From Acaryochloris thomasi RCC1774 (GTDB lineage Bacteria; Cyanobacteriota; Cyanobacteriia; Thermosynechococcales; Thermosynechococcaceae): 32,000 nt of DNA. Location: the NCBI RefSeq assembly GCF_003231495.1, contig NZ_PQWO01000016.1, positions 70,219-102,218 of the forward strand. Direction: 5' to 3'. Positions 8,279 through 29,309 of this stretch are shown piece by piece (the stretch's first letter is position 1; each line of letters opens with the position of its first letter). Below the pieces are notes generated by a model, which had not been told where the DNA came from, searched no databases, and saw nothing but the letters and a program-made list of their open reading frames with translations. The position numbers and the translations under genes are program-made.

Positions 8279-8468
8279 ACTCTTTCTCAATATCCATGAG
8301 GCGCAAGGCTCCTGACAGCTCAGTCGGGAGCCTTGCTCATAGAAAGTCCATCACTGCGGTTCTGTCACTCAATTAAAATAAGAGAAGCAAAATCTAGAGG
8401 CCCAAAGCCAAAGCAGGCTAGATTGAGCAACAGTTGCAACACGTCGTGCACATGGAGCATCTCAGTTA

Positions 8469-8807: not shown

Positions 8808-8829
8808 TCCGCCTCTAGAACTCTGCACT

Positions 8830-10143: not shown

Positions 10144-10398
10144 GACGAAGCAAGTTCCGTAGTCAGCACACTGACGTGTTTTAGGTTCACGAATAACGAA
10201 TTTTAATCAGTGAGTTTTTGGTGGTTGAAATTTAGGGCACTCTTAAGAGTGGAGTGAGGTTTGAAGCGTGCCTTGCCTGCTTTGCTGTCTGTGGAGTGAT
10301 TAACTCGATGGTCGGTGAGGGGAGTTTAATCAGCTTGAGTTCCCTTAGGGGCGTATTCTGGTAGACGTATAGAATTTTGAAGCCATACTTAGTCAAAC

Positions 10399-10989: not shown

Positions 10990-11023
10990 TTCTGCTCGTG
11001 CTTAATGGAGAGTCCCTAGCGAT

Positions 11024-11320
11024 ATGCAAAGTCCTGGATATCGACTGGAGCAATATACCTTACAGCATCTTCAGGAGGTGCTACTGGTGCAGGTTGAAAG
11101 TGAAGGTCAGAGGGATGAGGTTGTCATTTTTAAGGGTTACTCTAGTTCTTTGACTAGTCCGACGAACTTTGATCCAGATATGCCGGTGCTACCAGAACAG
11201 GCCAGAATTTTGACGGTTGATCGCTTAATGGGGCCTTACAATCCGGCTGAGCCTCAGTATCTACAGCGGGGCTTGTCATGGCCGGAGATGCAGGCTGTTT
11301 TAGCTGCAGAGGGACTCTAA
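11024..11320 (+). CDS. Hypothetical protein (98 aa)
   Basis: A clean ORF in a + strand gene run with tight spacing to its neighbours. I recognise no motif. Confidence 0.45.
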   Translation: MQSPGYRLEQYTLQHLQEVLLVQVESEGQRDEVVIFKGYSSSLTSPTNFDPDMPVLPEQARILTVDRLMGPYNPAEPQYLQRGLSWPEMQAVLAAEGL

Positions 11321-11332
11321 CGGAGGCATCAA

Positions 11333-12115
11333 ATGATGCGGCTATTCAGAACTTTTGTGCCTTTCTATGTTCTCGCGTTGATGCTAGCGGTTGATGCGGT
11401 ACAGGCGGCAGAGTGGTCTGAGATTCTACGTCGCGGGCACTTGGTGGTGGCGGTCAAGGACAATCTTAGACCGCTGGGGTTCCGTGATCGGCAAGGTCGG
11501 CTCCAGGGGTTTGAAATTGATTTAGCCCGACAGTTGGCCCAAGATTTGCTGGGGGATTCAACGGCGGTAGTGCTGAAGCCTGTTTTGAACCAGGATCGGC
11601 TCACGGCTGTCATTGAAGGAGAGGTAGATGTTGCGATCGCAAACATAACCCGCACCGACAACCGTAGGCGGATCGCCAACTTCAGCTTGCCCTACCACAC
11701 CAGCTCCACCCAACTGATCACTCAAGCCTCACAAATCCGCGAAGCCAAAGATCTGCAGACGATTGCAGTTCTGCAGCATTCCCATAATATTGCAGTCCTC
11801 AAATCCGCATTCCCCAACACGAATCTGATTGGTGTCCGTACTTACCAAGACGCCATAACCCACCTAGAAACGCAAAAAGCTGATGCCTTTGCGGGTGATC
11901 AAGCCGTTCTTACTGGCTGGCAGCAAAAAAACTCAGCCTATCGAATCATCGGGCAACCCCTAGCTCGTCAGCCTTTGGCAGTCGCGCTGCCGAAGGGCCT
12001 GCAGTACAACTCGCTGCTAGACAAGATTAATCAGTCATTAGATCAGCTCAACCAGTCAGGATGGCTAGAGCAACGCCGACAGCATTGGGGACTAGAACAG
12101 CACCGCAAACTTTGA
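11333..12115 (+). CDS. Periplasmic substrate-binding protein, amino-acid ABC transporter type (family 3 SBP)
   Basis: It has a signal peptide (MMRLFRTFVPFYVLALMLAVDAVQA). Typical family 3 blocks are present: LVVAVKDNLRPLGFRD..G.L.GFEIDLARQLA and ...DVAIANITRT..R...ANFSLPY... Confidence 0.8.
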   Translation: MMRLFRTFVPFYVLALMLAVDAVQAAEWSEILRRGHLVVAVKDNLRPLGFRDRQGRLQGFEIDLARQLAQDLLGDSTAVVLKPVLNQDRLTAVIEGEVDVAIANITRTDNRRRIANFSLPYHTSSTQLITQASQIREAKDLQTIAVLQHSHNIAVLKSAFPNTNLIGVRTYQDAITHLETQKADAFAGDQAVLTGWQQKNSAYRIIGQPLARQPLAVALPKGLQYNSLLDKINQSLDQLNQSGWLEQRRQHWGLEQHRKL

Positions 12116-12160
12116 ACAGTTTGATAGGCTGAAGACAGCGTCGTTTATGAAATCCTGTTA

Positions 12161-12718
12161 ATGCAAGCTCTAAAAAGTCTGCCTTTAGCCACAATTTATT
12201 TGGCACTCTTGCTCGGCCTTCTCCTCTTTGCCGTGATCATGATTGGTCGCCAAGTGATGCAAACCCGCAAAACCGAATCCACGATCGCACGCCTGCAGAC
12301 AAAGATTCGCGAAGGCTCAGGCAGTGTCGAAGAATATTTTGAGCTGGGCAGCATTTACCTGATGAAAAAACTGCCCGGTCAAGCGGTGGGACAGTTTCAG
12401 AAAGCCATCAAGCTGATCGAAGCAGACGAAGAGATTCCGCCCGAGAGTGCGCCGATCTATAACGCTCTGGGTTTTGCCTTCTTCAATCAAGATCAGTTTG
12501 ATATGGCGATTCGTCAATATAAAGAAGCCCTCGAGCGTCAGCCGACCTATGTGACAGCGCTCAACAACTTGGGGCATGTCTACGAGAAGAAGAATTTGAC
12601 CTCGCAGGCGCTGGAAACCTACGAGAAGAGTTTAGAGCAAGACCCTAAAAATTCCACCGCCAATCGCCGCATCAAGGTACTCAAGCGTCGGCTTGTCCCC
12701 ACAAGTCCCACTAGCTAA
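12161..12718 (+). CDS. TPR-repeat protein with N-terminal membrane anchor
   Basis: An N-terminal TM segment (LPLATIYLALLLGLLLFAVIMIG) is followed by TPR-like repeats: YFELGSIYLMKKLPGQAVGQFQKAI, YNALGFAFFNQDQFDMAIRQYKEALE and LNNLGHVYEKKNLTSQALETYEKSLE. Confidence 0.75.
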   Translation: MQALKSLPLATIYLALLLGLLLFAVIMIGRQVMQTRKTESTIARLQTKIREGSGSVEEYFELGSIYLMKKLPGQAVGQFQKAIKLIEADEEIPPESAPIYNALGFAFFNQDQFDMAIRQYKEALERQPTYVTALNNLGHVYEKKNLTSQALETYEKSLEQDPKNSTANRRIKVLKRRLVPTSPTS

Positions 12719-12729
12719 GGCAACTCACC

Positions 12730-12984
12730 ATGCCTGATCAATTAATGTACAGCGAGGATATGTACGTCGTGATTGAGACGGGACAACCCGAACAATTTTT
12801 GACGGCGGCAGAAATGCTCTCTCGACTGGAATCACTCCTGCAGCAATACCCTGAACAAGCAGCAGACCTGCAGCATCTGCCAACATTGACCGCCCAGGCA
12901 CAGCATTTGCTAAATACAGGCTGTGAGCTGGATCTTGGCGACGAACAGTATCTGCAGTGGTATGCCGTCCGTCTTGAAAAATAA
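12730..12984 (+). CDS. Small conserved cyanobacterial protein (possibly CRR7-like)
   Basis: 84 aa. The N-terminus MPDQLMYSEDMYVVIETGQPEQFLT and the C-terminus QWYAVRLEK resemble what I recall of cyanobacterial CRR7-family proteins. The memory-based assignment is weak. Confidence 0.35.
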   Translation: MPDQLMYSEDMYVVIETGQPEQFLTAAEMLSRLESLLQQYPEQAADLQHLPTLTAQAQHLLNTGCELDLGDEQYLQWYAVRLEK

Positions 12985-13006
12985 CCTTCTTTGGCGTCAC
13001 TGAACT

Positions 13007-14935
13007 ATGGCTAATTCTGTCGTTGCCCCCTACGGCTCTTGGAAGTCGCCGATCACCTCTGAGCTGATCGTCGCCGGCAGCATTGGTCTAGGTGATTTAG
13101 CCATTGATGGCGACAATCTCTACTGGACAGAACTACGCCCCACTGAAAAAGGACGCTCTGTTCTGGTTCAACAAACAGCAAGGGGCAAAAGCGATGTGAC
13201 TCCTGCTCCCTGGAACGTTCGCTCGCGCGTCCATGAATACGGCGGTGGAGCTTTTCTTGTCGATCAGGGCACCGTTTACTTCACAAACAATAGTGACCAG
13301 CGACTGTACCGCCAACGAGAGGGGCAATCCCCGGAATCTCTGACGCCAGAGACCACTCATGATCGCTACACCAATCCCATCATTGATCACCATCAAGACC
13401 GCATCCTCTGCATCCGCGAAGACCATCAGGCAGAAGTCACCAATACTTTAGTCAGCGTTGACTTAAAGACGGATAGCGAAAAGCCCGTCCAGACTTTGGC
13501 GCAGGGCCATGACTTCTATGCCTCTCCCTGCCTTAGCCCCGACGGCACTCAGCTTGCTTGGCTCACCTGGGATAACCCCAATCTCCCCTGGGATGGCACG
13601 GATCTCTGGCTGGCTACGTTCGAGGCGGATGGCACTCTCTCACAGCCACAGCACATTGCGGGTGGCACAGATGAATCAATCTTTCAGCCTCAGTGGTCCC
13701 CTGACGGACAGCTTTATTTCATCTCTGATCGCACTGGCTGGTGGAACCTTTATCGCTGGCAAGAGAGTAAAGCCCATCCTCTCTGTCCGATGTCGGCGGA
13801 GTTCGGCCTCCCTCAATGGGTGTTTGGCATGTCAACCTACGGCTTCATTGCTGCCGAGCAGATTCTTTGTTCCTACAATCTTCAGGGACAGTGGCATCTA
13901 GGACGCCTGGATGTCAGCAACGGCCAGATGCAAGAAGTTGAGACGGACTACACCAATATTTCGGGCCTGAAGGTCGGGCCAGCCTTCGCCACATTTAAAG
14001 GCAGCTCTCCTACAACGGCAACAGAAATTGTGCAGCTCGATCTGAAAACGGATCAGCAATCGGTTGTCTGTAGCGCCAGTCAACTCGATCTTGACCCGGC
14101 CTATCTCTCTGAGCCAGAGCTGCTGGAATTCCCAACAGAGGGGGGCCTGACGGCCTATGGATTTTATTACCCCCCTAAAAATAAGGATTTTCAAGGCTCC
14201 ACGACGGAAAAGCCGCCTTTGATTGTGAAGAGCCACGGGGGGCCAACGGCGGCAACGTCAAGTAGCTTGAGCTTAAAAATTCAGTACTGGACCAGTCGCG
14301 GTTTTGCTGTTCTAGACGTGAACTATGGCGGCAGTACGGGCTATGGCCGCGCCTATCAGCATCGCCTGCGTGATCAGTGGGGGATTGTAGATGTCGATGA
14401 CTGCGTGAACGGTGCCCAGTATTTAGCGAAGCAAGACCTTGTGGATTGCGATCGCATGGCGATCACCGGCAGCAGTGCAGGCGGCTACACAACATTAGCG
14501 GCTCTCACGTTTCGGGATGTGTTTAAGGCCGGGGCTAGCTACTACGGCATCGGCGATCTAGAAGCGCTTGCTAAAGACACCCATAAGTTTGAAGCTCGCT
14601 ATCTCGACCGACTAATTGGCCCCTATCCCGAGCGTCAGGATCTATATCAAGAGCGCTCCCCCATCCACCACGTCGAGCAGCTATCCTGTCCCGTGATTTT
14701 TTTGCAGGGACTTGAAGACAAAGTGGTGCCGCCGAATCAGGCTGAGGCAATGGTCAATGCCTTGAAAGAGAAAGGGATTCCGGTGGCCTACGTCACCTTC
14801 CCTGAAGAACAACATGGTTTTCGGCAAGCTAAGAATATCAAGCGGGCCCTAGATAGTGAGCTGTACTTTTATTCGCAGGTTTTTAGATTTGCGATCGCAG
14901 ACACCGTTGAAGCGGTCCCCATTGAGAACCTTTAG
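13007..14935 (+). CDS. S9 family serine peptidase (prolyl oligopeptidase / dipeptidyl aminopeptidase-acylaminoacyl peptidase type)
   Basis: 642 aa. An N-terminal beta-propeller-like region with WSPDG repeats (SPDGTQLAW, WSPDGQLYF) precedes a C-terminal alpha/beta domain. That domain has the nucleophile elbow GSSAGGY, an acid near QGLEDKVVP, and His in EEQHGF. Confidence 0.88.
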   Translation: MANSVVAPYGSWKSPITSELIVAGSIGLGDLAIDGDNLYWTELRPTEKGRSVLVQQTARGKSDVTPAPWNVRSRVHEYGGGAFLVDQGTVYFTNNSDQRLYRQREGQSPESLTPETTHDRYTNPIIDHHQDRILCIREDHQAEVTNTLVSVDLKTDSEKPVQTLAQGHDFYASPCLSPDGTQLAWLTWDNPNLPWDGTDLWLATFEADGTLSQPQHIAGGTDESIFQPQWSPDGQLYFISDRTGWWNLYRWQESKAHPLCPMSAEFGLPQWVFGMSTYGFIAAEQILCSYNLQGQWHLGRLDVSNGQMQEVETDYTNISGLKVGPAFATFKGSSPTTATEIVQLDLKTDQQSVVCSASQLDLDPAYLSEPELLEFPTEGGLTAYGFYYPPKNKDFQGSTTEKPPLIVKSHGGPTAATSSSLSLKIQYWTSRGFAVLDVNYGGSTGYGRAYQHRLRDQWGIVDVDDCVNGAQYLAKQDLVDCDRMAITGSSAGGYTTLAALTFRDVFKAGASYYGIGDLEALAKDTHKFEARYLDRLIGPYPERQDLYQERSPIHHVEQLSCPVIFLQGLEDKVVPPNQAEAMVNALKEKGIPVAYVTFPEEQHGFRQAKNIKRALDSELYFYSQVFRFAIADTVEAVPIENL

Positions 14936-15006
14936 CATCCAATGGGGAACCGAATATCCGCGTATATAACCGTCAGTTTTATACGTTATTGGCTAATGTT
15001 TATACG

Positions 15007-15303
15007 CTATTGGCTGATAGGTTCACCATCTAATAGCTCTAGCTGTCCTGACTCTCTCAGACAAGCCAAACGCCAGGTTTGAGACGTTACCTTACCCGGA
15101 AGATAGCCTGCAATGGTCAGATGAGTGGGCTGTCCACCCGAATTGGTCTTGACCAGCAGCTCTCCATTGCTCTGGCTCATGATCACCGCCTCAATTTCAA
15201 ACTCACCCTCCTGCTCCCAAGGCATCGCTTCACCAGGCTCGACCTCTTGAGGATTACTGCGGCGCACCGCACGATTATCGTTAGCAGGATTGGAAACAGA
15301 CAT
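15007..15303 (-). CDS. Hypothetical protein (98 aa from ATG 15303; track ORF starts at GTG 15312)
   Basis: Minus-strand ORF MSVSNPANDNRAVRRSNPQEV... I recognise no motif. It converges on the S9 peptidase gene. Confidence 0.4.
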   Translation of the reverse strand: MSVSNPANDNRAVRRSNPQEVEPGEAMPWEQEGEFEIEAVIMSQSNGELLVKTNSGGQPTHLTIAGYLPGKVTSQTWRLACLRESGQLELLDGEPISQ

Positions 15304-15359
15304 GACAAACACCCTAGGGGAGATAAAACGACAGCTATTATTAGGCTATCACCTTAGAA

Positions 15360-16781
15360 ATGCCTGAAGATGTATTCCTTACATCTTCTCCCTCAGATCA
15401 CCGAAGCCTTTCTGGCCAACTGTGGCCCCCCTTCCCCAGAAAGGACATGAGTGGGACACTACGGTTATCTTCGCTTTCTTTGTCTCCCCTAGAATGCATG
15501 CCCCTTCCACCTGAGTCATCCCTCCCCGAGCCTGAAGAGACTTCCGGCCCATTAAAGGAGCAGGCGTCGTTCAACCGCCGCAGATCTGCCTCTGACCGGT
15601 CATCCATTTCTCAACAGCCAAAGCCGCTTAGATTTTGGGCCGAGACCTCATCCGCGATTGACGTCAATCTCCAAAATCTCACGCCTCAGCAGCTTAGCTT
15701 GCTGACTGTGATTACAGTTGTTCTGATCTTTTTGGGTCTCTTTCTCCAGAGTGCGTTGATCGGTCTGCCTGCCGCCGCTATTGCTCTATTCCTTTCACTG
15801 CGGATGGTTTGGGCACCCCTACAGCAGATTTTTCGAACCTCATTTCCTAACCCTTACCGCCAGTGGGCGATCGCAACCGCCGTCGGAGTAGTTGCCCTGC
15901 TCGGCATCGCCTACTTCACGGGTCTCATTGGTCTGATTTTGTCTCTCGGGCGACGCATCAACTGGGAAGCCTTTGGAGCCTTGGCAGAGGCATTCGGGGC
16001 GGTTGGACAGATCTTGGTGGCTTTTTTAGCGTTGTTCGTGGCTTGGCGTCAGTACATCATCTCGAAGGAGCTGACGAGCCAGCAGAACCGGATTACCCAG
16101 CAGCAGACCATTGACGCCTATTTTCAGGGAATTTCTGACCTCGTTCTTGATGAAGATGGCTTACTAGAAGACTGGCCTTCTGAACGTGCGATCGCAGAGG
16201 GTCGCACCGCCGCCATTTTAGGGGGACTCAGTGCAGAGGGCAGAGCCAAAATCCTTCGATTTCTCTCCAGTGCCAAATTATTGACCCCGCTCAAACGCGA
16301 TCGTCGTTTAGGTCGAGCAATTTTTGATGGCTTAGGTGGTTATGAAGAAGATATTGAATATGGCGTACGGGTGATTGACCTCGGCAGCATGTTGGCCCAT
16401 TCAGACTTAGCGGCGACGGATCTCCAGCAGACTGAGCTGAGTGACGCTAACCTCATTGGGGCTGATCTACAGGGATGTGATCTCAGCCGCGCTAATCTTT
16501 CTCGCTGCATTCTCTATGGCGCAAATTTAAAGCACGCTGATTTTAGTCGGACAAAGCTTTATCACGGGACAGCAGAGACGGCTACACCCCGCGATCGCAT
16601 CAACGCCCCGAACTACGTTAAGGGCACCCAAACCGGAGCGATCATCGAAAATGTCGACCTCACCCAGGCTCGGAATCTCTCACCCGAGCAGCGCTACTAT
16701 TGCTGCGCTTGGGGCGGCTCCAAAACACGCGCTACCGTTCCCGGCGGCTGTGAAGGCATTCCGAACAAGCTCGAAGATTAG
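15360..16781 (+). CDS. Membrane-anchored pentapeptide-repeat protein
   Basis: - The N-terminus is Ser/Pro-rich.
- About four hydrophobic segments follow (e.g. LLTVITVVLIFLGLFL, AIATAVGVVALLGIAYFTGLIGLILSL, ILVAFLALFVAW).
- The C-terminal pentapeptide repeats read DLAATDLQQTELSDANLIGADLQGCDLSRANLSRCILYGANLKHADFSRTKL.
- The true start is uncertain; internal Met codons exist at aa 30 and 47.
- Its stop TAG (16779..16781) overlaps the stop of the convergent gene. Confidence 0.75.
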   Translation: MPEDVFLTSSPSDHRSLSGQLWPPFPRKDMSGTLRLSSLSLSPLECMPLPPESSLPEPEETSGPLKEQASFNRRRSASDRSSISQQPKPLRFWAETSSAIDVNLQNLTPQQLSLLTVITVVLIFLGLFLQSALIGLPAAAIALFLSLRMVWAPLQQIFRTSFPNPYRQWAIATAVGVVALLGIAYFTGLIGLILSLGRRINWEAFGALAEAFGAVGQILVAFLALFVAWRQYIISKELTSQQNRITQQQTIDAYFQGISDLVLDEDGLLEDWPSERAIAEGRTAAILGGLSAEGRAKILRFLSSAKLLTPLKRDRRLGRAIFDGLGGYEEDIEYGVRVIDLGSMLAHSDLAATDLQQTELSDANLIGADLQGCDLSRANLSRCILYGANLKHADFSRTKLYHGTAETATPRDRINAPNYVKGTQTGAIIENVDLTQARNLSPEQRYYCCAWGGSKTRATVPGGCEGIPNKLED

Positions 16782-17416
16782 TGCGTCTCTTTAGTTTGGC
16801 CGTCAATCAAAGCACTCCAATCGTCAGCCTCTACCGCAGACTTCAAATTCTCTGCCTTTGAAGCCGCTTCTTTCTCTTTTTCCTTTAGCAGCGTTTCATC
16901 CGCCATTGCCGTTCGCAGCTTCAGCTTTTTCGCTTCATGGGCTTCGCGCTCTGCAGCCGACATCACCGCCGCCGCACTAGCACCCACCGTGGCCGACCAA
17001 GTCCCATCCCCTTCATTTCCTGGGGGTACTGACCCATTCTCTGAGATCCAGGCATCGCGCAGCGCCTCCATTTCAGACCGCTTAGGAAACTGAAACGCCT
17101 GCACCCGGACAAAGGCACAGACTTGGGGACCGTTATCCGTGATGTGGCCTCTCAGTGCAAGCCCCACATTACGAGAATAGCCAACATACTGGGCTTGCTG
17201 CTGCTGATTGAACACGGCATAAACGCCCGCAATTTTCCGGTCTTCTGCCGTTGTTAGCCAAGATTCAAGGTCTAGGATTTCATTACTCTGGGAGACTGCA
17301 GGCGTTTGTTGCGAGACGCCATGTTCATCACCGGAACTGTAAAGGAAGTCGTGCAGTCCTTGATGATTCTCCGGTACATTTTGATGCTCAAGAGTGGGCT
17401 TGGGCGTCTTTTCCAT
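16778..17416 (-). CDS. Hypothetical protein with GIY-YIG-like N-terminal segment
   Basis: 212 aa. IAGVYAVFNQQQQAQYVGYSRNVGLALRGH resembles the GIY...YVG/YIG core of GIY-YIG-domain proteins conserved in cyanobacteria and plastids. The C-terminus is Lys/Glu-rich. Confidence 0.45.
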   Translation of the reverse strand: MEKTPKPTLEHQNVPENHQGLHDFLYSSGDEHGVSQQTPAVSQSNEILDLESWLTTAEDRKIAGVYAVFNQQQQAQYVGYSRNVGLALRGHITDNGPQVCAFVRVQAFQFPKRSEMEALRDAWISENGSVPPGNEGDGTWSATVGASAAAVMSAAEREAHEAKKLKLRTAMADETLLKEKEKEAASKAENLKSAVEADDWSALIDGQTKETH

Positions 17417-18979: not shown

Positions 18980-19008
18980 TATGCAATGATAATCGTTATC
19001 ATTGTATA
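18980..19008. promoter_or_regulatory. Zur/Fur-type operator palindrome in the divergent promoter region
   Basis: TATGCAATGATAA-TCG-TTATCATTGTATA is a 13-3-13 inverted repeat with one mismatch. Its core TGATAATcGTTATCA fits the 7-1-7 Zur-type box. The 19-nt core AATGATAATCGTTATCATT is identical to the one at 29279..29309. It lies 64 to 92 nt upstream of the minus-strand gene start (18916) and 23 to 51 nt upstream of GTG 19031. Confidence 0.7.
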
Positions 19009-19030: not shown

Positions 19031-20245
19031 GTGAAGAGCCAGATAGATATTGCCGTGATCGGGGCCGGACCCCAAGCGCTGACGTTAGTGACCCATCTGC
19101 TGCAGAAGAAGCAGGCTCTACGCGATCGCATCCAAGTCTTTGATCCCAGCGGCACCTGGATGGCGCAGTGGCAACAGCAGTTTGCGGCGCAGGAGATTCC
19201 CTATTTGCGATCGCCTGGTGTGCATCACCCCGATCCTAAACACACCCTATTCAACTTTGCTGAACGCCGCCAGGATGAGCTGCATCTGCCCTACAATCGG
19301 CCCGGTACAGCACTGTTTCAAGATTTCTGTGAAACTGTCATTGATCGCTGGCAACTGCGCGATCGAGTGACCGCAGCCCAGGTGATGAAGTTAACGCCGT
19401 TGCCGTCCCGATTTCAGCTTCAGTTGAGTAACGGCGAACAAATTGAAGCGCGGCGGGTCGTTTTAGCGACGGGCGGCGGCAAAGCACAGGTGCCTGCCTG
19501 GGTTGCCCAGGTTAATCTCCATCCTCCAGAACGGCTGTGTCACGCCCAAGATGTTTGCCTGCCAGAATTACCGGACCTGACGGGTGAAACGGTTTTGATT
19601 GTCGGTAGTGGGCAGTCCAGCGCTCATTTAGCGGTGGGGGCTGTTGGGCGAGGCGCGAGGGTATTGCTGATGGCCCGTCGGACCCTGACGGAAAAGCTAT
19701 TTGATGCGGAACCGGGTTGGTTGGGGCCGAAGTATCTGAAGGGTTTCCAGGCAGAGCAAGACTGGCAAGTGCGCTGGCAGATGATTCAAGCGGCCCGGAA
19801 CGGCGGGTCAATTGCGCCGGAGCTGCTGCATCGACTGCGGCGATATTCACGTTCTGGGCAAGTCACCTTTTATGAGCGCTGTCATGTATCTAATGCGACC
19901 TGGCAAGGAGAAGCATGGCAGGTGCAGTGTAGTTTGCCGACTGTGCATGATTGTTTAGCACATCAGTCTATTGATCGGATCTGGCTGGCGACGGGAACGC
20001 AGACGGATATTACAGCGCATCCCTTAATGGGGGAGATTTTGGAGCGATATCCGAATCAGATTGTCAATGGCCTGCCGGTGTTGGATGAGCACTTGCGCTG
20101 GCCCGGTTGTGAGCTATTTTTGATGGGACCGTGGGCGGCGCTGCAGGTGGGGCCGGTGGCGAGGAATTTGCATGGGGGTCGGATGGGTTGCGATCGCATT
20201 GTCCCGGCATTAACCAAGGCCAGCGTTGCTCGAACTGTTGCCTAG
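19031..20245 (+). CDS. FAD/NAD(P)-binding oxidoreductase (two Rossmann motifs; N-hydroxylating-monooxygenase-like architecture)
   Basis: 404 aa starting at GTG, with GGGAGGG at 19021..19027. The first dinucleotide fold is IDIAVIGAGPQALTLV and the second is VLIVGSGQSSAHLAVGAV. The precise subfamily cannot be determined by eye. Confidence 0.75.
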   Translation: MKSQIDIAVIGAGPQALTLVTHLLQKKQALRDRIQVFDPSGTWMAQWQQQFAAQEIPYLRSPGVHHPDPKHTLFNFAERRQDELHLPYNRPGTALFQDFCETVIDRWQLRDRVTAAQVMKLTPLPSRFQLQLSNGEQIEARRVVLATGGGKAQVPAWVAQVNLHPPERLCHAQDVCLPELPDLTGETVLIVGSGQSSAHLAVGAVGRGARVLLMARRTLTEKLFDAEPGWLGPKYLKGFQAEQDWQVRWQMIQAARNGGSIAPELLHRLRRYSRSGQVTFYERCHVSNATWQGEAWQVQCSLPTVHDCLAHQSIDRIWLATGTQTDITAHPLMGEILERYPNQIVNGLPVLDEHLRWPGCELFLMGPWAALQVGPVARNLHGGRMGCDRIVPALTKASVARTVA

Positions 20246-20485
20246 AGTTTCAAAACTGGTAAATCTAGAACCTGGTGCAGGCAGTATATTTATTGGCTTA
20301 AGATACCCAAACTTAGTCTTTTGAATACGGTGAACAACAGGATAATCCCCTCAGGGCCGGAGTCATCTGACTTCTGATTGATAATGCTCTTGTCTCAGAG
20401 TTATCAGGTTCTTGGTGGATAATACTCTCCCGGCCAGAGTTATTATGCATCATCCGTATAATTAATAGTTATAGCAGCTAGGGAG
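20141..20485 (+). repeat. Copy A of a diverged ~350-bp direct repeat (last ~105 nt of the flavoprotein CDS plus a ~240-nt hairpin-rich leader)
   Basis: It aligns with 24286..24640 through shared blocks, in the same order: GGTGGCGAG.AA.TTGC.TGGGGG, GGATGG..TGCGAT, ATTGT.CCGGCATTA, AAAACTGGTA, CTGGTAAAT, TGCAGGCAGT, CCCAAACTT, GGTGAAC, CAGGATAAT, CCTCAGGG, GAGTTATCAG, CATC.GT, TAATTA, TAGTTA. It contains three hairpin units at 20339..20366, 20378..20405 and 20416..20443. Confidence 0.8.
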
Positions 20486-20586
20486 ATATAGTGAGCATTC
20501 CAGGGATCAGGAATGCCTTCATATTAAGGATTCTGGAGATGAAAACATCCTAACCGTCTGCCTCTCTACGATAGATTTTTGAAACC

Positions 20587-21474
20587 ATGAACGAGCAAGC
20601 ACAGTTACCAGAACCTCCGCAGTTTTCTGACGAGGAAATGCAGAGATGCCGAGAAACTGGCGACTTCATGCCTATGCTTTTTGAGTGGTACAAGTTTGTT
20701 GGTCATGTCTGCATATTTTTCGCCCAATTACAGAGAGAGTCACCAACAGTCAGAGAAATTTTACCAATCCACTTTGCTATTCTTACTGGGCTACTAAACC
20801 GTTGTGCGAGATTGATGCTGTCAAACATAGCGCTTTCCCATAATGGAAATTTTGGAGAGACAACAGCACTCTTGGACAGGTGTATTTTTGAATCTTGCCT
20901 CAAATTAGATTGGCTGTGTCATGAAGGAAATGATGATAGTTTTCAGTGCTATTTGGCGGGTGGACTCAAAACAGAAATAGAGCTTGAAAAAGAAATAAGG
21001 GGAAAAATAACTGAGCGAGAAGACAGCGAAGTTCTTCACATTGAAAAGCGTATGCTTTCATCTATTGATCGCTATATCAATGCTGCAGGATTGAGCCGCG
21101 AAGAAATTATCGAAGCTAAAAAGCTACCCGATGTTTCTGCAATGCTTCGAGATTTAGGCCATGAAAGGTTAATGTACGTAGTTGCACAACGGCTGGGTTC
21201 ACATCATGTACATGGAACCTGGCCAAGCCTTTTACTACATTACCTTGAGGTTGATGATGATGGTGGTTTCACTCTCAGAGATCATGATTGTCATACACAT
21301 CCAAATCAATTTGTAATGACCCCGCTTCAGGTTTTGGGGGCGATTACATCATTTATTGTTTTTGTAATCGAGGCCGAAGATGCAGAAGGCATTGTGAGCT
21401 TGTTAGATTCTATTCAAGAAGAAATTCTGAACATCAATGGCGAAATGATTGGGAGCGACTTTCAGCGTTCATAA
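20587..21474 (+). CDS. Hypothetical protein (295 aa), AT-rich cassette gene; predicted all-alpha, possibly DUF5677-like, with an Rx4-6H (HEPN-like) motif
   Basis: A clean ORF in a visibly AT-rich segment with no HIP1. Notable motifs are LNRCARLMLSNIALSHNG, LLDRCIFESCLKLDWLCHEG and AQRLGSHHVHGTWPSLLLHYL. I recognise no enzymatic signature. The family assignment is from memory and weak. Confidence 0.6.
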   Translation: MNEQAQLPEPPQFSDEEMQRCRETGDFMPMLFEWYKFVGHVCIFFAQLQRESPTVREILPIHFAILTGLLNRCARLMLSNIALSHNGNFGETTALLDRCIFESCLKLDWLCHEGNDDSFQCYLAGGLKTEIELEKEIRGKITEREDSEVLHIEKRMLSSIDRYINAAGLSREEIIEAKKLPDVSAMLRDLGHERLMYVVAQRLGSHHVHGTWPSLLLHYLEVDDDGGFTLRDHDCHTHPNQFVMTPLQVLGAITSFIVFVIEAEDAEGIVSLLDSIQEEILNINGEMIGSDFQRS

Positions 21475-21565
21475 CAGTTCTAACGCTTGTGGATAAATTG
21501 ATACTGATCTCTGAATTACGGGCATAATAGCCTGATACAACACTTGTTAAATATAGGTTTAAACA

Positions 21566-21781
21566 ATGCCTCAAGTAAAAAGATTTGATATTAAGGGTGA
21601 GAACGGAATCGATGAAAGTGCCTCTGTCGGCATACATGAGTTAATTGTGAAAGTGGATGGTCAGCCTTTTTCAGAAAAAAGTTCAGCAAAGGCAAGCCTT
21701 ACTTGGTACAACAGCAAAAATGAACTTCAGGGATACAAAGTTGTCCCTTTTTTGGATGGATATGCTTTGTACAAACCGTAA
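21566..21781 (+). CDS. Hypothetical small protein (71 aa), co-oriented partner of the 295-aa cassette gene
   Basis: It begins with ATG, 91 nt after the upstream stop, and shares the same AT-rich composition. It ends 9 nt before the MITE-like element. I recognise no homology. Confidence 0.4.
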   Translation: MPQVKRFDIKGENGIDESASVGIHELIVKVDGQPFSEKSSAKASLTWYNSKNELQGYKVVPFLDGYALYKP

Positions 21782-21790
21782 AGTAGAGTA

Positions 21791-22073
21791 GTGCCACCTA
21801 CATTCCGCAGGTTAGTGAATTCTTGTAAACCTTTTCCAGTAAAGGCTTTGAGCCTTAGCTTGAAACTCAAGAATACCTCCCTCAGATCGTTGAGATACAG
21901 GTGGCCGATTAACCTGTATTGCTTCTCTAATCTGGCTTCTAGAGAGTCTGTGATCTGTTTTTTCAGGTGATGCAACCTGGATTGATGGAACAGAGTCGAT
22001 TTTTGACAGGCCCTGTAACCTTTATCTAGTATGGCTTCTAGAAAAGCGTACTACCTGCGGAATGTAGGGTGCC
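21791..22073. mobile_element. MITE-like element or heavily deleted IS relic with terminal inverted repeats
   Basis: The left end GTGCCACCTACATTCCGCAGGT (21791..21812) pairs with the right end ACCTGCGGAATGTAGGGTGCC (22053..22073). The 16-nt core CCTACATTCCGCAGGT is a perfect inverted repeat. The ~240-bp interior has only an 82-aa ORF fragment on the minus strand and no intact transposase. Confidence 0.6.
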
Positions 22074-22103
22074 AAGGCGTTCTGTGATAGCAAAACCACT
22101 TCT

Positions 22104-22928
22104 CTAGCCCATACCATTTTCATTCTCGTCCAAGCTGAGGGTAAATCCTGTCACCCATCCTCGCTGAACCCACAGCGGAAGCAGTGCTGTGACGGCTATG
22201 TCTGCGGTGCGGTCCTCAAGCTGGGCGCAAATCTCTCCAAACTGAGCACCGGAAGCAAAGGCTTGTAATAGCTGCCATTCAGCGGCATTGGGTAAGTCAA
22301 TCCGGGTTTCATACTGGTCTCGCCAGAGAAATAGATTGACCTCACCCTCGCTTAGATCGACAGTTTCGGTACTGGATGCATCGGCTTGATTGACCTGCCA
22401 AATTCGGTGTATAGGGTACGGTGAGGTCAGTAAAATGCTACTGGCTGGGAGCTGAAACACTAAATCAGGCCAACGGCCGGGGGGCACTTTACTCAAGGCT
22501 GCTAGATCTAAAAGGGGTTGGTCTTTACTGTTGAAGATACGGTGCCAATTCCACTCTAAATGGGCCACATCCGGCAGATAGGGGAGCGAGGCAGCCGGTT
22601 CAAACTGGGCTAGAAAGTCAGAGAGCTGTTCCCCATAGTCCCCTAAATCGGGTGATTGCGATGGATACCGACGGATATATTGACGAGCCATAGTGGTGAA
22701 AAACTGGGTTCCCACCAACCGACCGCACACAGGATAAATATCTTCTAGAGCACGACTGAGTTTGCCAACAACGCTGCCTTGATAGGCCGACAGACCTCGT
22801 TCAAAGGAGAGATGTTCAGTGCTACGCATCTGGGGTTTGAGCTGCTGGATGCTGTCGGAGTCTTTAGTTGCGATCGCACTATAAAACAACCGCTGTAGCT
22901 CTCTCAGTTCTGGGGGTGGTGTTGACAT
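22104..22928 (-). CDS. bufC: DUF2063-family protein (BufC/MbnC-like RiPP recognition partner of the DUF692 enzyme)
   Basis: 274 aa. The segment LSAYQGSVVGKLSRALEDIYPVCGRLVGTQFFTTMARQYIRRYPSQSPDLGDYGEQLSDFL fits the DUF2063 N-terminal pattern. Its start overlaps the upstream DUF692 gene by 25 nt. Confidence 0.75.
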   Translation of the reverse strand: MSTPPPELRELQRLFYSAIATKDSDSIQQLKPQMRSTEHLSFERGLSAYQGSVVGKLSRALEDIYPVCGRLVGTQFFTTMARQYIRRYPSQSPDLGDYGEQLSDFLAQFEPAASLPYLPDVAHLEWNWHRIFNSKDQPLLDLAALSKVPPGRWPDLVFQLPASSILLTSPYPIHRIWQVNQADASSTETVDLSEGEVNLFLWRDQYETRIDLPNAAEWQLLQAFASGAQFGEICAQLEDRTADIAVTALLPLWVQRGWVTGFTLSLDENENGMG

Positions 22929-23725
22929 AGATAGGTATCAGCCTGCTGTGCTTCGGCCATCAAAACATCAAAGCTAGGAATATCCGTATCCCACTCAATC
23001 AGCGTCGGCACCGGACCAAACCGCTGGAGTGCCTGTTGATAAAGCGCCCAGACTCTAGGCTGTACCGGGTAGCCGTGGGTATCGAATAAAAAGTGGTCCT
23101 GCTCTTCGTAACCGGCCAGATGAATCTCCTTGACGCGATCGGTGGGAATGGCTTCCAGATAGTCCAACGGGTCAAAGGCGTGATTCGCGGCATTGACGTA
23201 GACATTATTGATATCCAAGAGCAGATCGCAATCAGCCTCAGCCACGAGAGCGGCAATAAACTGCCATTCGGCCAAGCTGTTGTGGCGAAACTGAAGGTAA
23301 GGCGATAAATTTTCAATGAGAATCCGCCGACCAAGGAAGTCCTGCACCTGCGAAATCCGATCTGCAACGTAATGGAGGACCGATTCAGTGTAGGGCAACG
23401 GAGCCAAGTCGTTGAAGTAATGACCATTGACCGAAACCCAGGCCAAGTGATCGGAAATATAGACGGGTTCAATCCGATCAGCAAGCCGCTTGAGCTGGGT
23501 CAGGTAGTCAATGTTGAGGGGATCTGCAGACCCCAGCGACAGACTAACGCCGTGCAGCGTGAGCGGATACCGTTCCCGGACTTGTTCTAGATGATAAAGG
23601 GGCAAACCACCCCCCAAATAGTTGTCGGAGAGGGCTTCTAGCCAGGGTACGGCGGGTTGATGAGCGAGGATGTGGGCGTAATGTTGCGATCGCAACCCAA
23701 TCCCAGCTCCCTGAATCTCAGGCAT
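22904..23725 (-). CDS. bufB: DUF692 / UPF0276 multinuclear non-heme iron oxidative enzyme (MNIO; MbnB/BufB-like)
   Basis: GAGIGLRSQHYAHIL, LEALSDNY, LHGVSLSLGS, ISDHLAW, ILIENLSPY, LLDINNVYVNAANH, EIHLAGY and LIEWDTDIP are the conserved DUF692 blocks. I set the start at ATG 23725 (MPEIQGAGIGLR) rather than the TTG at 23782 used by the track. Confidence 0.88.
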   Translation of the reverse strand: MPEIQGAGIGLRSQHYAHILAHQPAVPWLEALSDNYLGGGLPLYHLEQVRERYPLTLHGVSLSLGSADPLNIDYLTQLKRLADRIEPVYISDHLAWVSVNGHYFNDLAPLPYTESVLHYVADRISQVQDFLGRRILIENLSPYLQFRHNSLAEWQFIAALVAEADCDLLLDINNVYVNAANHAFDPLDYLEAIPTDRVKEIHLAGYEEQDHFLFDTHGYPVQPRVWALYQQALQRFGPVPTLIEWDTDIPSFDVLMAEAQQADTYLCQHHPQN

Positions 23726-23802
23726 TGAACGATAGATACTCCAAAATGTCAGGGTGTCTGCTGTCAACAAACAGGCACCCAAAATACATGAGATAGATAG
23801 GT

Positions 23803-24117
23803 TTAATCCTCTTCCTTTTCTGCTTCCGCCTCTTCAGCAGGCGGTGCGGCCTCTTTCAACGTTGAGCCAACAATTTTTTCGCAGGTTCCAGCAGGCACAT
23901 AAATCCATTCTTCTGGGTCATTGTCGACTGTCGCTTTACCAGAGCAGTCATGCTTGCTCGTGCCACAGTCGTTGAGACCGGTCTTGACGATTCCGGCGCA
24001 TTTTTCAAATCCAGCCTTACCGGCAACTGCATCATCAGATTGATTTGCAAGTATTCCGAGGGCAAGCACACTCGATAAAGCGGTGGTCACGGCGACGGCT
24101 TTGGTTGTTGTGTTCAT
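23803..24117 (-). CDS. bufA: DUF2282-family secreted peptide (bufferin BufA1-type RiPP precursor) with acidic C-terminal extension
   Basis: A signal peptide ([24 protein letters not shown]) precedes the core [48 protein letters not shown], which has the four conserved Cys of DUF2282. It is the first gene of the DUF2282-DUF692-DUF2063 operon. The extra tail is [20 protein letters not shown]. Confidence 0.8.
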
Positions 24118-24285: not shown

Positions 24286-24407
24286 TAGCAACTGGGGGGC
24301 AAGTGGCGAGAAACTTGCGTGGGGGGGCGGATGGCGTGCGATGGCCGTTAGCGAAGCCCTTCCTCTAAAGGCAGGCCGGAGACCACTGCATTGTTCCGGC
24401 ATTAGCG
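24286..24407 (+). pseudogene. Relic of the 3' end of a flavoprotein gene (paralogous to the end of CDS 19031..20245)
   Basis: It aligns with 20141..20214 (CDS codons for ...VGPVARNLHGGRMGCDRIVPAL) but is interrupted by a ~46-nt insertion (24343..24388). There is no upstream coding continuity. Only spurious overlapping ORFs occur on both strands (24184..24402 minus, 24236..24454 plus). Confidence 0.55.
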
Positions 24408-24640
24408 AAAACTGGTATTGCCCACACAGTCACATAAGGTTTTATGCCTGGTAAATTTAATATCTGATGCAGGCAGTTCATCGCGTAGGACTTTTCAATC
24501 TTGAGATTCCCAAACTTGGTTTTCTAAACATGGTGAACTCCAGGATAATATCCTCAGGGTCGGATTTATCCGGTTTTTGGCGAAAATATCTCTAATGCCG
24601 GAGTTATCAGCTGCCATCGGTCTAATTATAGTTAGACCTC
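24286..24640 (+). repeat. Copy B of the diverged ~350-bp direct repeat (gene-end relic plus hairpin leader)
   Basis: See copy A for the shared blocks. It contains two hairpin units at 24543..24571 and 24582..24609. The first, GGATAATATCC-tcagggtc-GGATTTATCC, is followed by GGTTTTTGG and so looks like a terminator. It has an extra 35-nt insertion after AAAACTGGTA and lacks the third hairpin unit of copy A. Confidence 0.8.
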
Positions 24641-24763
24641 TATGCTATCTGTGGAGAGCGCAGAGGTAAACGTTATATGAAATCAATGATTCAACAGGTA
24701 ATTATGGGTAGCCTAAGGCAGAAGGATTGAAATCTTGTATAGTCTAGACACCAAAGCAATAAC

Positions 24764-26308
24764 ATGTCGATTTCTCAACAACGATTACATAAGCTAGAGA
24801 TAATCAAGCTAAAGAATGTTAGAGACGTTTGTATTTCATTTGAAAACAAAAATATAACTGGCATTCTTGGTCCAAACGGTTATGGAAAGTCGACTATTCT
24901 TCATGCGCTTGCCTGTTGTTTCCAGCCACCAAATCAAGGACAAGAAGACTATAAATTCAGTGATTTTTTTCTGCCAAGCCCTGATGCATTATGGGCAGGT
25001 AGTGAACTAAGATTAGTTCATACTTATCGTCAATCCTCTCAACTGCACGAAGGTGTGGAGCAAGTCTACGGAAAGAGCAGCGATCGGTGGAAACCAATAT
25101 ATAAAAGAAGGCCAACAAGGAATGTACATTATTTTGGTGTGGACAGTTGTGTCCCACTCATCGAATCAGAAAAACGAAATGTAAAAATCAATTACTCAAC
25201 CGAGAACTTAAGTGAAGATATTATTACTACAATCTTAGAGAAAGCCTCGTATTGTCTTAATCGGAAATATACAGCTTATAATATTCATAAGCATGGCAAA
25301 GGGAGAAGGTTTATTGGCGTTGAAGCTAATGGAATTAGATACTCTGCACTAAGCATGAGTGCTGGAGAACAGAAAATGTTCTTGTTGCTATAAAAAGTTT
25401 TTAGAGCCTCTAAAAACAGTCTTATTCTTATAGATGAATTTGACCTGCTTTTGCATGATTCAGCAATGAAAAACCTTATAAAGATTATATCTGAAAGAGC
25501 AGCACGTTATAATCTGCAAGTTGTATTTACAACGCATAGAGAATCAATTATTGAGCTGTCGGATTTAATTAATATAAGACATATTTTTGGAACGTCAGAA
25601 AAAACTCTTTGCTTTGATGAGACAAAACCCGATGCGATAAATCGTTTAACAGGGACTCAACCTAGATTGATTGAGATTTTCGTTGAAGATGATCTGGCTA
25701 TGGCGATTACAAAAAAGGTGGCAGGTCAACTGCGTATTTCCAAGCATGTTTCTGTACAAAGGTTCGGTGCTGCTATAAATTGTTTTACAGTTCTATCTGG
25801 ATTACGTCTACGTGGTGAAAATTGCGACAATAGTATTTTTGTGTTGGATGGAGATGTCTATAGAACTCAAGAAGAACAAAAAATACGGATAGAGGCTGTT
25901 TTAACTGGAAATGATGAACGGTCAAAATTACTTCGAGAATCTAGTCTTGCGAAAATAAAATGCTTAAACCTTCCAGAAAACACCGAGCCTGAAAAATATA
26001 TTCATAGTATTATTACCGGGCTAGAAGAGACTGACGATAACGAACATAATGAAATAATTGAAGTTGCTAAGCAAATTGCGGCTGTTGATGACAGTCATAA
26101 GTTTGTAGATGATATAATACGCAGGCTTGACTGGAATCGAGATGTCGGATTATCAAAAATAATCGATCTGATTAGCTCTACTCAAGAATGGGCTAATTAT
26201 GTTTCTAGCGTAAATGATTGGTTGATTTCAAAAAGAGAATTGGTGCAAGAGACTACTTCCCAAGAAGTCTCTTGCATTGCGTCGCAGCGAATGGAAGGGA
26301 GATCTTGA
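24764..26308 (+). pseudogene. ABC/OLD-like ATPase fused to a TOPRIM/DUF4435-like domain, interrupted by one in-frame TAA (25391..25393)
   Basis: - Track ORFs 24764..25393 and 25451..26308 are in the same frame ((25451-24764)=687).
- The 57 nt between them contain no further stop and encode the Walker B region: ...SAGEQKMFLLL*KVFRASKNSLILIDEFDLLLH.
- Other ATPase motifs are Walker A GPNGYGKST and the H-loop VVFTTHRES.
- The C-terminal half has the TOPRIM-like acidic motifs IEIFVEDDLAMAI and IFVLDGDVY.
- The segment is AT-rich and I saw no HIP1. Confidence 0.7.
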
Positions 26309-26411
26309 TGTTGAGTTTGGTCTATCTGCCGCCGCTGAACTCAGCCGTTAGACGTAAGTTCTCCCAAGTTCAAATATCCTAAACTCATCAAGGCTAGTTG
26401 CTTGCCCTGCC

Positions 26412-26427
26412 GTATCCCACAGGATAC
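26412..26427. promoter_or_regulatory. Candidate HigA operator palindrome
   Basis: GTATCC-CACA-GGATAC is a perfect 6-bp inverted repeat ending 10 nt upstream of the higB ATG (26437). Confidence 0.3.
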
Positions 26428-26436
26428 GATTAGGCT

Positions 26437-26727
26437 ATGCTTGAAATCCGCGAAACCCAAGTTTATGCTTGTTGGTTCAGCAGCTTACGAGATAGGCGGG
26501 CCAAAGCACGCATCGATACTCGAATTCGTCGCTTATCTCTGGGAAATCCAGGTGATGTTAAGCCAGTTGGAGCAGGTGTCTCTGAACTTCGTATTGACTA
26601 TGGGCCAGGTTACAGAATTTATTTCATTCAGCGCGGATCAGCCGTGATTGTCTTGCTTGCCGGTGGAGACAAACGGACCCAAACCCAAGACATCAAACAA
26701 GCGCTTGAATTAGCTGAAGATTTATAG
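26437..26727 (+). CDS. higB: Type II toxin, RelE/ParE superfamily (HigB-type 'addiction module killer protein')
   Basis: 96 aa. FSSLRDRRAKARIDTRIRRLSLGNPGDVKPVGAGVSELRIDYGPGYRIYFIQRGSAVIVLLAGGDKRTQTQDIKQA is the typical pattern of this toxin family. The toxin gene comes first, followed by the antitoxin 10 nt later. Confidence 0.85.
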   Translation: MLEIRETQVYACWFSSLRDRRAKARIDTRIRRLSLGNPGDVKPVGAGVSELRIDYGPGYRIYFIQRGSAVIVLLAGGDKRTQTQDIKQALELAEDL

Positions 26728-26736
26728 GAGGATGAC

Positions 26737-27042
26737 GTGCCTAAAACTAAAACTCAGCCTTGGGACGCAGCAAATCACTTAGAAACTAAAGAGGACATAG
26801 CAGCATATCTCGAAGCGGCGCTTGAAGATGGAGATCCTGCCTTGATTACTGCCGCCCTTGGAGATGTTGCTCGTTCTAAAGGAATGACACAGATCTCGCG
26901 TGATACTGGCCTTGGTCGTGAAAGTCTCTATAAAGCGTTATCTGTCGAAGGTAATCCAGAATTTGCAACGATTCTCAAGGTTTTTCAAGCTTTAGGCCTT
27001 CAGTTACAGGTGAAGACAGTTGAAAGTGAAAGCTTTGTCTAA
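26737..27042 (+). CDS. higA: Type II antitoxin, HigA-family HTH 'addiction module antidote protein'
   Basis: 101 aa starting at GTG. WDAANHLETKEDIAAYLEAALEDGDPALITAALGDVARSKGMTQISRDTGLGRESLYKALSVEGNPEFATILKVFQALGLQL is the typical pattern. AGGAGG lies at 26727..26732. Confidence 0.85.
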   Translation: MPKTKTQPWDAANHLETKEDIAAYLEAALEDGDPALITAALGDVARSKGMTQISRDTGLGRESLYKALSVEGNPEFATILKVFQALGLQLQVKTVESESFV

Positions 27043-27264
27043 CAACGCCATGCAAGCAACGCTCGATTCAAGCTATCAGTTGTATTTTTTCACACTTCTG
27101 CTTGCGCCCCTGAAGAATCACCGTTGAGATGAAGCGGTAGCCAGAAGCTGCCCCGTCAGGTTGGGTTGACGCAGGAAATTCAATACCGTAGGAATAATTG
27201 AAGCCTTGTGATCCAAGAAGCGAGGATCCGTGAAGCATAATCCATTCAATTCTCTTAGAAGTCG

Positions 27265-29278: not shown

Positions 29279-29309
29279 CTATAGAATGATAATCGTTATC
29301 ATTCTATAG
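29279..29309. promoter_or_regulatory. Zur/Fur-type operator: perfect 14-3-14 palindrome upstream of the COG0523 gene
   Basis: CTATAGAATGATAA-TCG-TTATCATTCTATAG has perfectly complementary arms. The core TGATAATcGTTATCA matches the 7-1-7 Zur-type box and is identical to the core at 18980..19008. Confidence 0.8.

Follow-up and report, generated by a model that had tools for sequence, protein, structure and literature searches.

Within a stretch of 32,000 nucleotides (nt) from Acaryochloris thomasi RCC1774 (contig NZ_PQWO01000016.1, positions 70,219 to 102,218), referred to below as the window, a gene of the DUF5677 family encoding a protein of 295 amino acids (aa) lies in an inserted block of low GC content. 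A sequence-only reading had described this gene, together with a 71-aa open reading frame (ORF) downstream of it, as an orphan two-gene cassette, possibly a small toxin–immunity or abortive-infection pair. The feature is instead a lone gene of the DUF5677 family, which is constrained, moves horizontally and has no partner. It derives from an integron cassette that was stranded in a recombination hotspot. The block, its contents and the genes on either side are listed here with their window coordinates; the labels L001 to L064 are those of fetched contigs that carry relatives of the gene or orthologues of its flanks.

19031–20245, plus strand: FAD-oxidoreductase gene, left flank of the block, convergent with the hvfC/DUF2063 gene
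20246–22103: inserted low-GC block (GC 0.40–0.42), where synteny with L064 breaks and L063 has differing cargo
20256–20407, plus strand: 'leader copy A', a repeat of 24448–24610
20570–20576, plus strand: degenerate R′ core GATAGAT (compare GTTAGAT), located by upstream alignment with relatives
20587–21474, plus strand: DUF5677-family gene, 295 aa, ORF intact
21478–21552, plus strand: possible decayed attC, with R″-like TTCTAAC and GTTAAAT and no hairpin
21566–21781, plus strand: small ORF, 71 aa, unlikely to be a gene and definitely no conserved partner
21791–22074: element resembling a miniature inverted-repeat transposable element (MITE), 272 bp, with 16-bp perfect terminal inverted repeats and a 6-bp direct repeat
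22104–22928, minus strand: hvfC/DUF2063 gene, right flank of the block

Both ORFs are present and co-oriented, as had been claimed, and are 91 nt apart. The description of the block as AT-rich and free of HIP1 was also accurate. Its GC is 0.40–0.42 over 20501–22000, compared with about 0.50–0.56 in the flanks, and the 295-aa gene has a GC of 0.416 (0.355 at third codon positions), the remaining window being at 0.503. The HIP1 palindrome (GCGATCGC) occurs 19 times in the window where 0.6 copies would be expected, an excess that marks the host as a cyanobacterium, and none of these copies lies between 20197 and 22870; given an average of about one HIP1 per 1.7 kb, this 2.7-kb gap is by itself weak evidence for foreignness. 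The surroundings are an ordinary chromosomal region, in which the ORF scan of the window found genes for DnaK, an intein-bearing ribonucleotide reductase, CobW and a WD40 protein, among others. The ribonucleotide reductase gene, at 2596–5676, is split by an intein with a LAGLIDADG homing-endonuclease domain. No integrase, transposase or tyrosine recombinase was found among the window ORFs scanned.

To compare the flanks, orthologues of the hvfC/DUF2063 gene were searched for and their contigs, L063 and L064, were fetched. The gene order in L064 (GCA_020357715.1) is that of the window, running from BufA1, MbnB and HvfC to the convergent FAD-oxidoreductase and an alpha/beta-hydrolase. Homology between the two ends at 20222 and restarts at 22138, and the conserved flanks, which are ~85 bp apart in L064, are separated by 1.9 kb in the window. 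The same slot in L063, a related marine cyanobacterial contig from the TARA metagenomes, holds a different 5.1-kb cargo, with (at 5400–8768) a 1122-aa Schlafen/AlbA_2-like protein, Uma2 and an antitoxin. Because the block is absent from L064 and replaced by other cargo in L063, we conclude that 20246–22103 is foreign DNA in a variable recombination hotspot, and the claim that a foreign block occupies an insertion slot is supported by both contigs.

The 295-aa protein matches Pfam DUF5677 (PF18928) with an E-value of 2.1e-18 and a score of 67.4 bits, the gathering cut-off being 27.1. The match spans profile positions 2–165 of 166 and places the domain at residues 64–226 of the protein; what had been noticed as a faint resemblance to DUF5677 is thus a match over nearly the full profile length, and all 89 diverse relatives have it too. 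Profiles from NCBIfam and PHROGs gave no match to the protein. The proposed PADLOC check yielded one weak match, of the 295-aa protein to PDC-S52, and nothing for the 71-aa ORF. The only other Pfam family that recurs as a weak match among the relatives is DUF6988 (12 of the 89 members, best E 3.9e-4).

There are 641 homologues among 5.8 billion proteins, the best being 82–85% identical. These best homologues include Vreelandella venusta and Pseudidiomarina atlantica (Gammaproteobacteria), with Acidobacteriota, Betaproteobacteria and others also represented. An exhaustive profile search gave 754 clusters at 50% identity, nearly all of them of single-domain proteins of 290–300 aa. When one genome per species was scanned, relatives were carried by 49 loci, spanning Proteobacteria, Cyanobacteria, Acidobacteriota, Nitrospirota, Planctomycetota, Spirochaetota, Myxococcota, Ignavibacteriales, Eremiobacterota and Saccharibacteria. 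The ratio of non-synonymous to synonymous substitution rates (dN/dS) against the closest relatives is 0.07–0.12 with dS above 1; recent transfer alone thus does not account for the high identity of the proteins, which are under strong constraint. Mean column identity in the subfamily is 55% across phyla. In nearly all hosts the GC of the gene is below that of the DNA around it, as in L003 (0.398 in the gene, 0.592 around it) and L016 (0.489 and 0.696). The family is not evidently phage-borne, since a tblastn search of phage genomes found no relative of the protein and a pattern-seeded scan of the 2.9 million viral contigs of IMG/VR confirmed none. On plasmids, only distant Lactobacillus DUF5677 proteins were found.

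The means by which the gene moves is indicated by the ends of the homologous DNA. In the closest relatives, GCGTTAGAT, which contains the R′ core GTTRRRY, is found at −17 to −18 from the start codon, and ATCTAAC or ACCTAAC (R″ core RYYYAAC) overlaps the stop codon or lies within a few nt of it. A hairpin 3′ of R″ ends with GTTAGAT, GTTAAAC or GTTAGGC; compared with shuffled sequence, these attC hairpins have z-scores of −3.6 (L001), −2.3 (L050) and −2.2 (L053). Among 50 full-length loci, GTTRRRY occurs at −17 to −25 in 14 (~0.4 expected) and RYYYAAC occurs at the stop codon in 17 (about 2 expected). Judged by these motifs, about a third of the related loci are classic integron cassettes. Sites were also sought with a motif-plus-stem detector and shuffle controls, the strict threshold of which gave 0 matches in 961 kb of shuffled sequence. 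By these means attC was recognised in relatives L001, L005, L016, L050, L053, L059 and L060, and in three of these contigs the sites form arrays, with 14 or more in L059, 17 or more in L060 and 7 or more in L005.

The L060 contig (Geothrix sp. SG200, 1–16897) carries a long chromosomal integron array in an acidobacterium. Around 20 small ORFs lie on the same strand, each followed by a GCCTAAC...GTTAGGC element of ~120 nt that folds into a bulged hairpin and is a textbook attC. The cassettes encode a CAP12/PCTIR TIR domain, RES, cupins, SnoaL-like proteins, OsmC and acetyltransferase.

In the window, nucleotide homology to the closest relatives (80% for L001, 79% for L050 and 78% for L002) is limited to 20572–21484, that is, from 15 nt before the ATG to 10 nt past the stop codon of the 295-aa gene, and thus runs from cassette end to cassette end. 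The 5′ end reads GATAGATTTTTGAAACC-ATG; its core is one mismatch from GTTAGAT, has its G 17 nt before the ATG, and occupies the same position as in the cassette-borne relatives. The 3′ end reads TAA-cag-TTCTAAC, with an R″ remnant at 21478–21484 where relatives have ATCTAAC, and GTTAAAT is found 75 nt beyond TTCTAAC, at 21546–21552. An intact attC between the two ORFs was considered and rejected. Folding of 21478–21555 as DNA gave no hairpin (dG −3.6, z −0.46; attC sites in relatives have z between −2.2 and −3.6), the stem score of the remnant is 0 where real sites score 4–12, and no attC-like site was detected at the working threshold in the whole window.

The window copy thereby has the appearance of a stranded integron cassette that retains degenerate ends only, and we are highly confident that the feature is a solo, cassette-derived DUF5677 gene. 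Its relatives resemble other integron cassettes without an assigned function, and the BRiCs (phage-defence cassettes) found in mobile integrons and in sedentary chromosomal ones, in being single promoterless ORFs with a GTTRRRY core and an attC hairpin of 60–125 nt, arranged in same-strand arrays. The window copy differs in having no folding attC, no integrase and no array, and is a fossil in a cyanobacterial hotspot. The routes by which it may have reached the slot include insertion by an integrase into a secondary site of a donor, and illegitimate or flank-mediated recombination. Integron cassettes have been described as reservoirs of phage-defence genes (BRiCs), and homologues of these also occur isolated outside integrons, without recognisable attC (10.1101/2024.07.02.601719). 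For this DUF5677 family, no phenotype of phage resistance is known.

A decayed attC in a window without an integrase is also what would be expected of a dead relic, a cassette that is neither expressed nor used in this cyanobacterium. Cassettes are normally promoterless, and we found no sigma-70 consensus promoter upstream of the 295-aa gene. However, cyanobacterial promoters fit the Escherichia coli consensus poorly. The ORF is moreover intact over 295 codons and differs from its relatives mostly at synonymous positions, although the latter was measured over the whole lineage and not only in this host. A relic is thus improbable.

The co-orientation of the two ORFs, their close spacing within one foreign block, and the location of GTTAAAT 20 nt before the second ATG would all be compatible with the pair originally proposed, with the 295-aa protein as effector and the 71-aa product as its partner in toxin–immunity or abortive infection. 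Against this, the 71-aa ORF has no homologue but itself among the 5.8 billion proteins, a tblastn search of the 49 homologue loci gave nothing at E <1, and the homology to relatives stops, as described above, 10 nt past the stop codon of the first gene. An ORF of at least 71 aa arose in 223 of 1000 dinucleotide shuffles of 21475–22103 (22%), and two antisense ORFs, of 67 and 82 aa, also overlap this DNA. A single-sequence AlphaFold model of the product has a pLDDT of 46, a value expected whether the ORF is real or not. Most likely, the 71-aa ORF arose by chance in non-homologous filler DNA. Neither does any other gene take the place of a partner: in an all-against-all BLAST of the five neighbours on each side in the 49 loci, no family occurred in more than four loci and none occurred at a fixed position. 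Conservation of the 71-aa ORF beside homologues of the 295-aa gene, by which the sequence-only reading had proposed to judge itself, was never found, and the two-gene model is refuted; the family is one of solo genes without a conserved neighbour. With the two-gene architecture, which was its core, the toxin–immunity inference fails, and a pair at this locus is very improbable.

An AlphaFold2 model of the 295-aa protein, built from a 116-sequence alignment, is all-alpha (pLDDT 91, pTM 0.89), in agreement with what had been judged from the sequence. The proposed Foldseek search with this model, against PDB and BFVD, gave nothing below E 0.26 and hence no similarity to any known enzyme fold; the best PDB matches were BAR domains (E 0.3, TM 0.19), with no HEPN entry among them. 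A sequence-profile search of PDB was empty. The hydrophobic segment at 242–261 (Kyte–Doolittle score 2.1) was considered as a transmembrane helix and rejected, because relatives carry Arg residues in the same helix; it is read as a buried core helix. The net charge of the protein is −23, the family medians being −13.5 and −8 in the two alignments used below. The protein is predicted to be soluble, acidic, all-alpha and enzyme-like.

Residue conservation was assessed in an alignment of the close subfamily at 50% identity or more (A3) and in a broader one of 89 representatives at 25–46% identity (A4), to which the two charge medians respectively belong. The Cys/His clusters, which had been picked out as conserved-looking, are indeed nearly invariant in A3 (93% or more). 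Across the family they are not: in A4, C235 is retained in 9 of 89, H207 in 17, H233 in 21, H238 in 26 and H85 in 27. A family-wide Cys/His metal site was ruled out by this low retention.

The string RLGSHHVH had been suggested as an Rx4-6H motif of the HEPN type, which would make the protein a HEPN-superfamily RNase. The HEPN abortive-infection RNases (AbiV, AbiJ, AbiU2 and others) are likewise small or medium-sized and all-alpha, are often encoded by single genes in defence islands or cassettes, and share with the window family a His preceded by a basic residue at the start of a helix. Position 202 is Arg or Lys in 73 of the 89 A4 sequences and is followed by the invariant H209, and in L051 the gene adjoins HEPN-type Abi genes. 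However, the Arg of the motif is itself not conserved: R202 is Arg in 50 of 89 (56%), Lys in 23 and another residue, including Gly, Ser and Gln, in 16. In the Lactobacillus plasmid DUF5677 protein, which is related with an hhalign probability of 98.7, the equivalent residue is Ser, and R72, R98, E102, W109 and H209 are kept. Even with an E limit of 1, none of the 89 members had a match to a HEPN Pfam family, hhalign against an AbiJ-like protein gave a probability of 2%, and the fold comparison was equally unproductive. The motif cannot be upheld as the HEPN Rx4-6H, and a HEPN RNase is as improbable as a relic.

Only R98, E102 and H209 are invariant in A4, and G68, R72, L76, W109, E153, Y197, S205, G210, W212 and L215 are conserved in 90% or more. 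Arg98, Glu102 and His209, with the near-invariant Arg72, Glu153, Tyr197, Ser205 and Trp212, probably form one active site. Sets of Arg, Glu and His are used by metal-independent ribonucleases, and because of this likeness RNA cleavage would be the favoured chemistry; as a specific proposal, metal-independent RNase-type chemistry is rather unlikely to be correct.

The company kept by the relatives bears on the function. The 96 immediate neighbours in the 49 loci, annotated with Pfam and PADLOC, are heterogeneous and include a few OLD/Gabija/PARIS-type ATPases, EcoRII-C, an integrase, a transposase and another DUF5677 protein. Nine contexts were annotated with Pfam and NCBIfam, and are given here with the identity of the relative to the window protein.

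L001, Elongatibacter, 83%: an AAA_21/AriA-like ATPase on one side, a prokaryotic Argonaute (pAgo) on the other
L050, Vreelandella, 82%: beside Mrr_cat, at the end of an integrase-AlpA-Toprim-DUF927 island
L051, Pseudidiomarina, 80%: YoeB/YefM, HigA-like, AbiJ_NTD4 and HEPN_RES_NTD1-RES, and further type I restriction-modification, Mrr_cat, DUF4917 and Abi_2
L053, TARA, 70%: Mrr_cat, DUF5677, unknown gene, DUF4238, unknown gene and ParDE, within a urate-catabolism cluster
L055, 55%: solo Cas1, FRG and integrase
L059, 64%: insertion sequence elements and BrnT/BrnA
L060, Geothrix, 55%: TIR and RES cassettes
L061, Burkholderia, 56%: primase-bearing prophage- or satellite-like region
L062, 70%: HicAB

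Defence or toxin–antitoxin genes lie within a few kb in eight of the nine contexts, all but L061, a count confined to these annotated contexts. The guess of a defence context was therefore a reasonable one, the relatives being on mobile DNA and often near such genes. In Elongatibacter sediminis L001, the two genes on either side of the DUF5677 cassette are at 3665–5356 (ATPase) and 6482–8674 (pAgo; NCBIfam E 5e-101). Sites resembling attC at 6359–6439 and 9915–9985 of this contig suggest that the pAgo gene may itself be an integron cassette.

A second line of evidence comes from known systems. DitA of the Aditi defence system carries PF18928 at residues 276–427, with an HHpred probability of 99, according to the DefensePredictor supplement (PMC13092281), in which an E. 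coli DUF5677 protein is also a predicted novel defence gene. Aditi consists of two genes, DitA and DitB, and its mechanism is unknown. The window protein shares the DUF5677 domain with DitA and differs in the position of the domain, in its length of 295 aa and in having N- and C-terminal helices of its own; unlike Aditi, the window gene has no DitB-like or other conserved partner in the 49 loci. Systems containing DUF6988 have been experimentally validated in defence (PMC13092281). The matches of our family to DUF6988 and to PDC-S52, weak and recurrent, are short and below the threshold for membership, and indicate distant relatedness at most. In Bacillota, a DUF5677 ORF enriched next to serine recombinases has been tested in Enterococcus faecalis against six phages (PMC12632615).

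Because relatives have defence neighbours in other genomes and the domain is present in DitA, a one-protein anti-phage effector, possibly acting by abortive infection, would be the most likely role. Resting as it does on company and on the analogy with Aditi, we regard such a defence role as finely balanced. The main rival is an accessory enzyme or stress protein with no part in defence, whose cassette serves a conserved cellular substrate and is kept as occasionally useful, for example in detoxification, in a metal-dependent reaction or in nucleotide metabolism. The strong purifying selection across phyla would suit such an enzyme, the near-invariant Cys/His residues of the close subfamily suggest a metal site, and arrays such as that of L060 are full of cupin, SnoaL, OsmC and acetyltransferase cassettes. 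An ordinary enzyme would not, however, be expected to lack similarity to any known enzyme fold, or to have relatives recurring beside pAgo, Mrr, restriction-modification, RES, TIR, AbiJ and toxin–antitoxin genes and in integrase-bounded islands; the domain shared with DitA and the defensive call by DefensePredictor point the same way. The many housekeeping neighbours of relatives and the outcome of the E. faecalis test, both taken up below, are more easily accommodated by the rival. We consider an accessory enzyme unlikely, if less so than the ribonuclease chemistry.

Several observations weigh against a cassette-borne defence effector. Very strong sequence conservation, as seen in this ~295-aa subfamily of putative defence function, is untypical of arms-race genes. 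Five ORFs gave protection in the E. faecalis test, and the distant DUF5677 ORF was not one of them (PMC12632615), and many of the immediate neighbours of relatives are clear housekeeping genes. PADLOC support is weak: PDC-S52 is matched by 8 of the 89 family members with a best E of 3.5e-4, and the DitA models matched neither the 295-aa protein at E up to 1 nor the 89 relatives at E up to 0.1. The net charge of the window protein is unusual for a nucleic-acid enzyme. R98 and E102 share a helix, with a spacing of four residues, and might simply be the two halves of a structural salt bridge. As regards the cassette, no intI was seen in the flanks fetched for the L005, L059 and L060 arrays or in the other flanks examined, and the window ORFs scanned include no integron integrase. 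Finally, with no sigma-70 consensus upstream, expression in this genome is unproven.

Taking both sides together, a solo cassette-borne DUF5677 gene encoding a one-protein defence effector is the best explanation of the whole, and one that we consider probable with some reserve. A tightly conserved ~295-aa DUF5677 subfamily moves between phyla as a promoterless integron cassette, and one such cassette was very probably stranded in the variable intergenic hotspot that separates the FAD-oxidoreductase gene from hvfC. There its attC would have decayed, and the MITE would have been inserted alongside later. The effector would stay inactive until infection.

The remaining elements of the block were also examined. 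The leader that was thought to precede the cassette does have a second copy: 20256–20407 and 24448–24610 are identical at 115 of 149 positions, with a local alignment score of 73 against a null maximum of 26. In addition, 20149–20197, within the 3′ end of the FAD-oxidoreductase gene, matches 24296–24345 by blastn. Copy B is thus a diverged duplicate of the 3′ end of that gene plus ~160 nt downstream; it is a flank of the hotspot and not a cassette leader. The MITE-like element was borne out, with 16-bp perfect terminal inverted repeats at 21797–21812 and 22053–22068 (blastn-short self-match) and the direct repeat GTGCCA at 21791–21796 and 22069–22074. With inverted repeats and a target-site duplication it looks like a genuine MITE insertion; no second copy was found in the window or the fetched loci. 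No Rfam family matched in 19900–22400.

A second low-GC foreign block lies at 24296–27264, where it stands in place of the HTH_5, cation-efflux and MICAH genes of L064. It is preceded by copy B and contains the following ORFs.

24764–25393: N-terminal fragment of an OLD/DUF2813-type ATPase
25451–26308: 285-aa ORF without a Pfam match
26737–27042: HigA-like antidote

The split OLD/DUF2813-type ATPase may be a pseudogene. Between the two blocks, 22104–24117 on the minus strand is a bufferin-type operon for a ribosomally synthesised and post-translationally modified peptide, conserved in L063 and L064. Besides hvfC it comprises two genes.

22904–23782, minus strand: MbnB/DUF692 enzyme
23803–24117, minus strand: DUF2282/BufA1 precursor

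A 29-nt palindromic repeat (TATGCAATGATAATCGTTATCATTGTATA) occurs at 18980–19008, upstream of the FAD-oxidoreductase gene, and at 29280–29308, between cobW and a FUR-family gene; the two copies are 90% identical. This FUR-family gene is homologous to the FUR gene of L064. The likeness of the repeat to a Fur/Zur box suggests that the whole neighbourhood may be a metal-responsive regulon.

That a variable region contains a gene whose function is unknown is in itself nothing out of the ordinary, and both the family and this kind of cassette were already known. What the analysis corrects is the plausible but mistaken idea of a pair: selection and transfer act on a single gene with integron cassette ends on either side. 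A DUF family tied to the validated Aditi defence has a compact, highly conserved stand-alone form, which integron recombination spreads to widely differing bacteria, among them cyanobacteria that show no integron in the vicinity, and the locus is an example of how cassettes become stranded in chromosomal hotspots. With one gene, ~900 bp and three invariant residues, the subfamily is a cheap and well-defined candidate for testing. We suggest, tentatively, that the ~295-aa solo DUF5677 subfamily, carried through at least 10 phyla as an integron cassette, may be an unrecognised single-protein anti-phage effector with an all-alpha fold unlike solved structures. If it is indeed the minimal stand-alone form of the DitA domain, working out the activity of the Arg98, Glu102 and His209 site would also explain Aditi.

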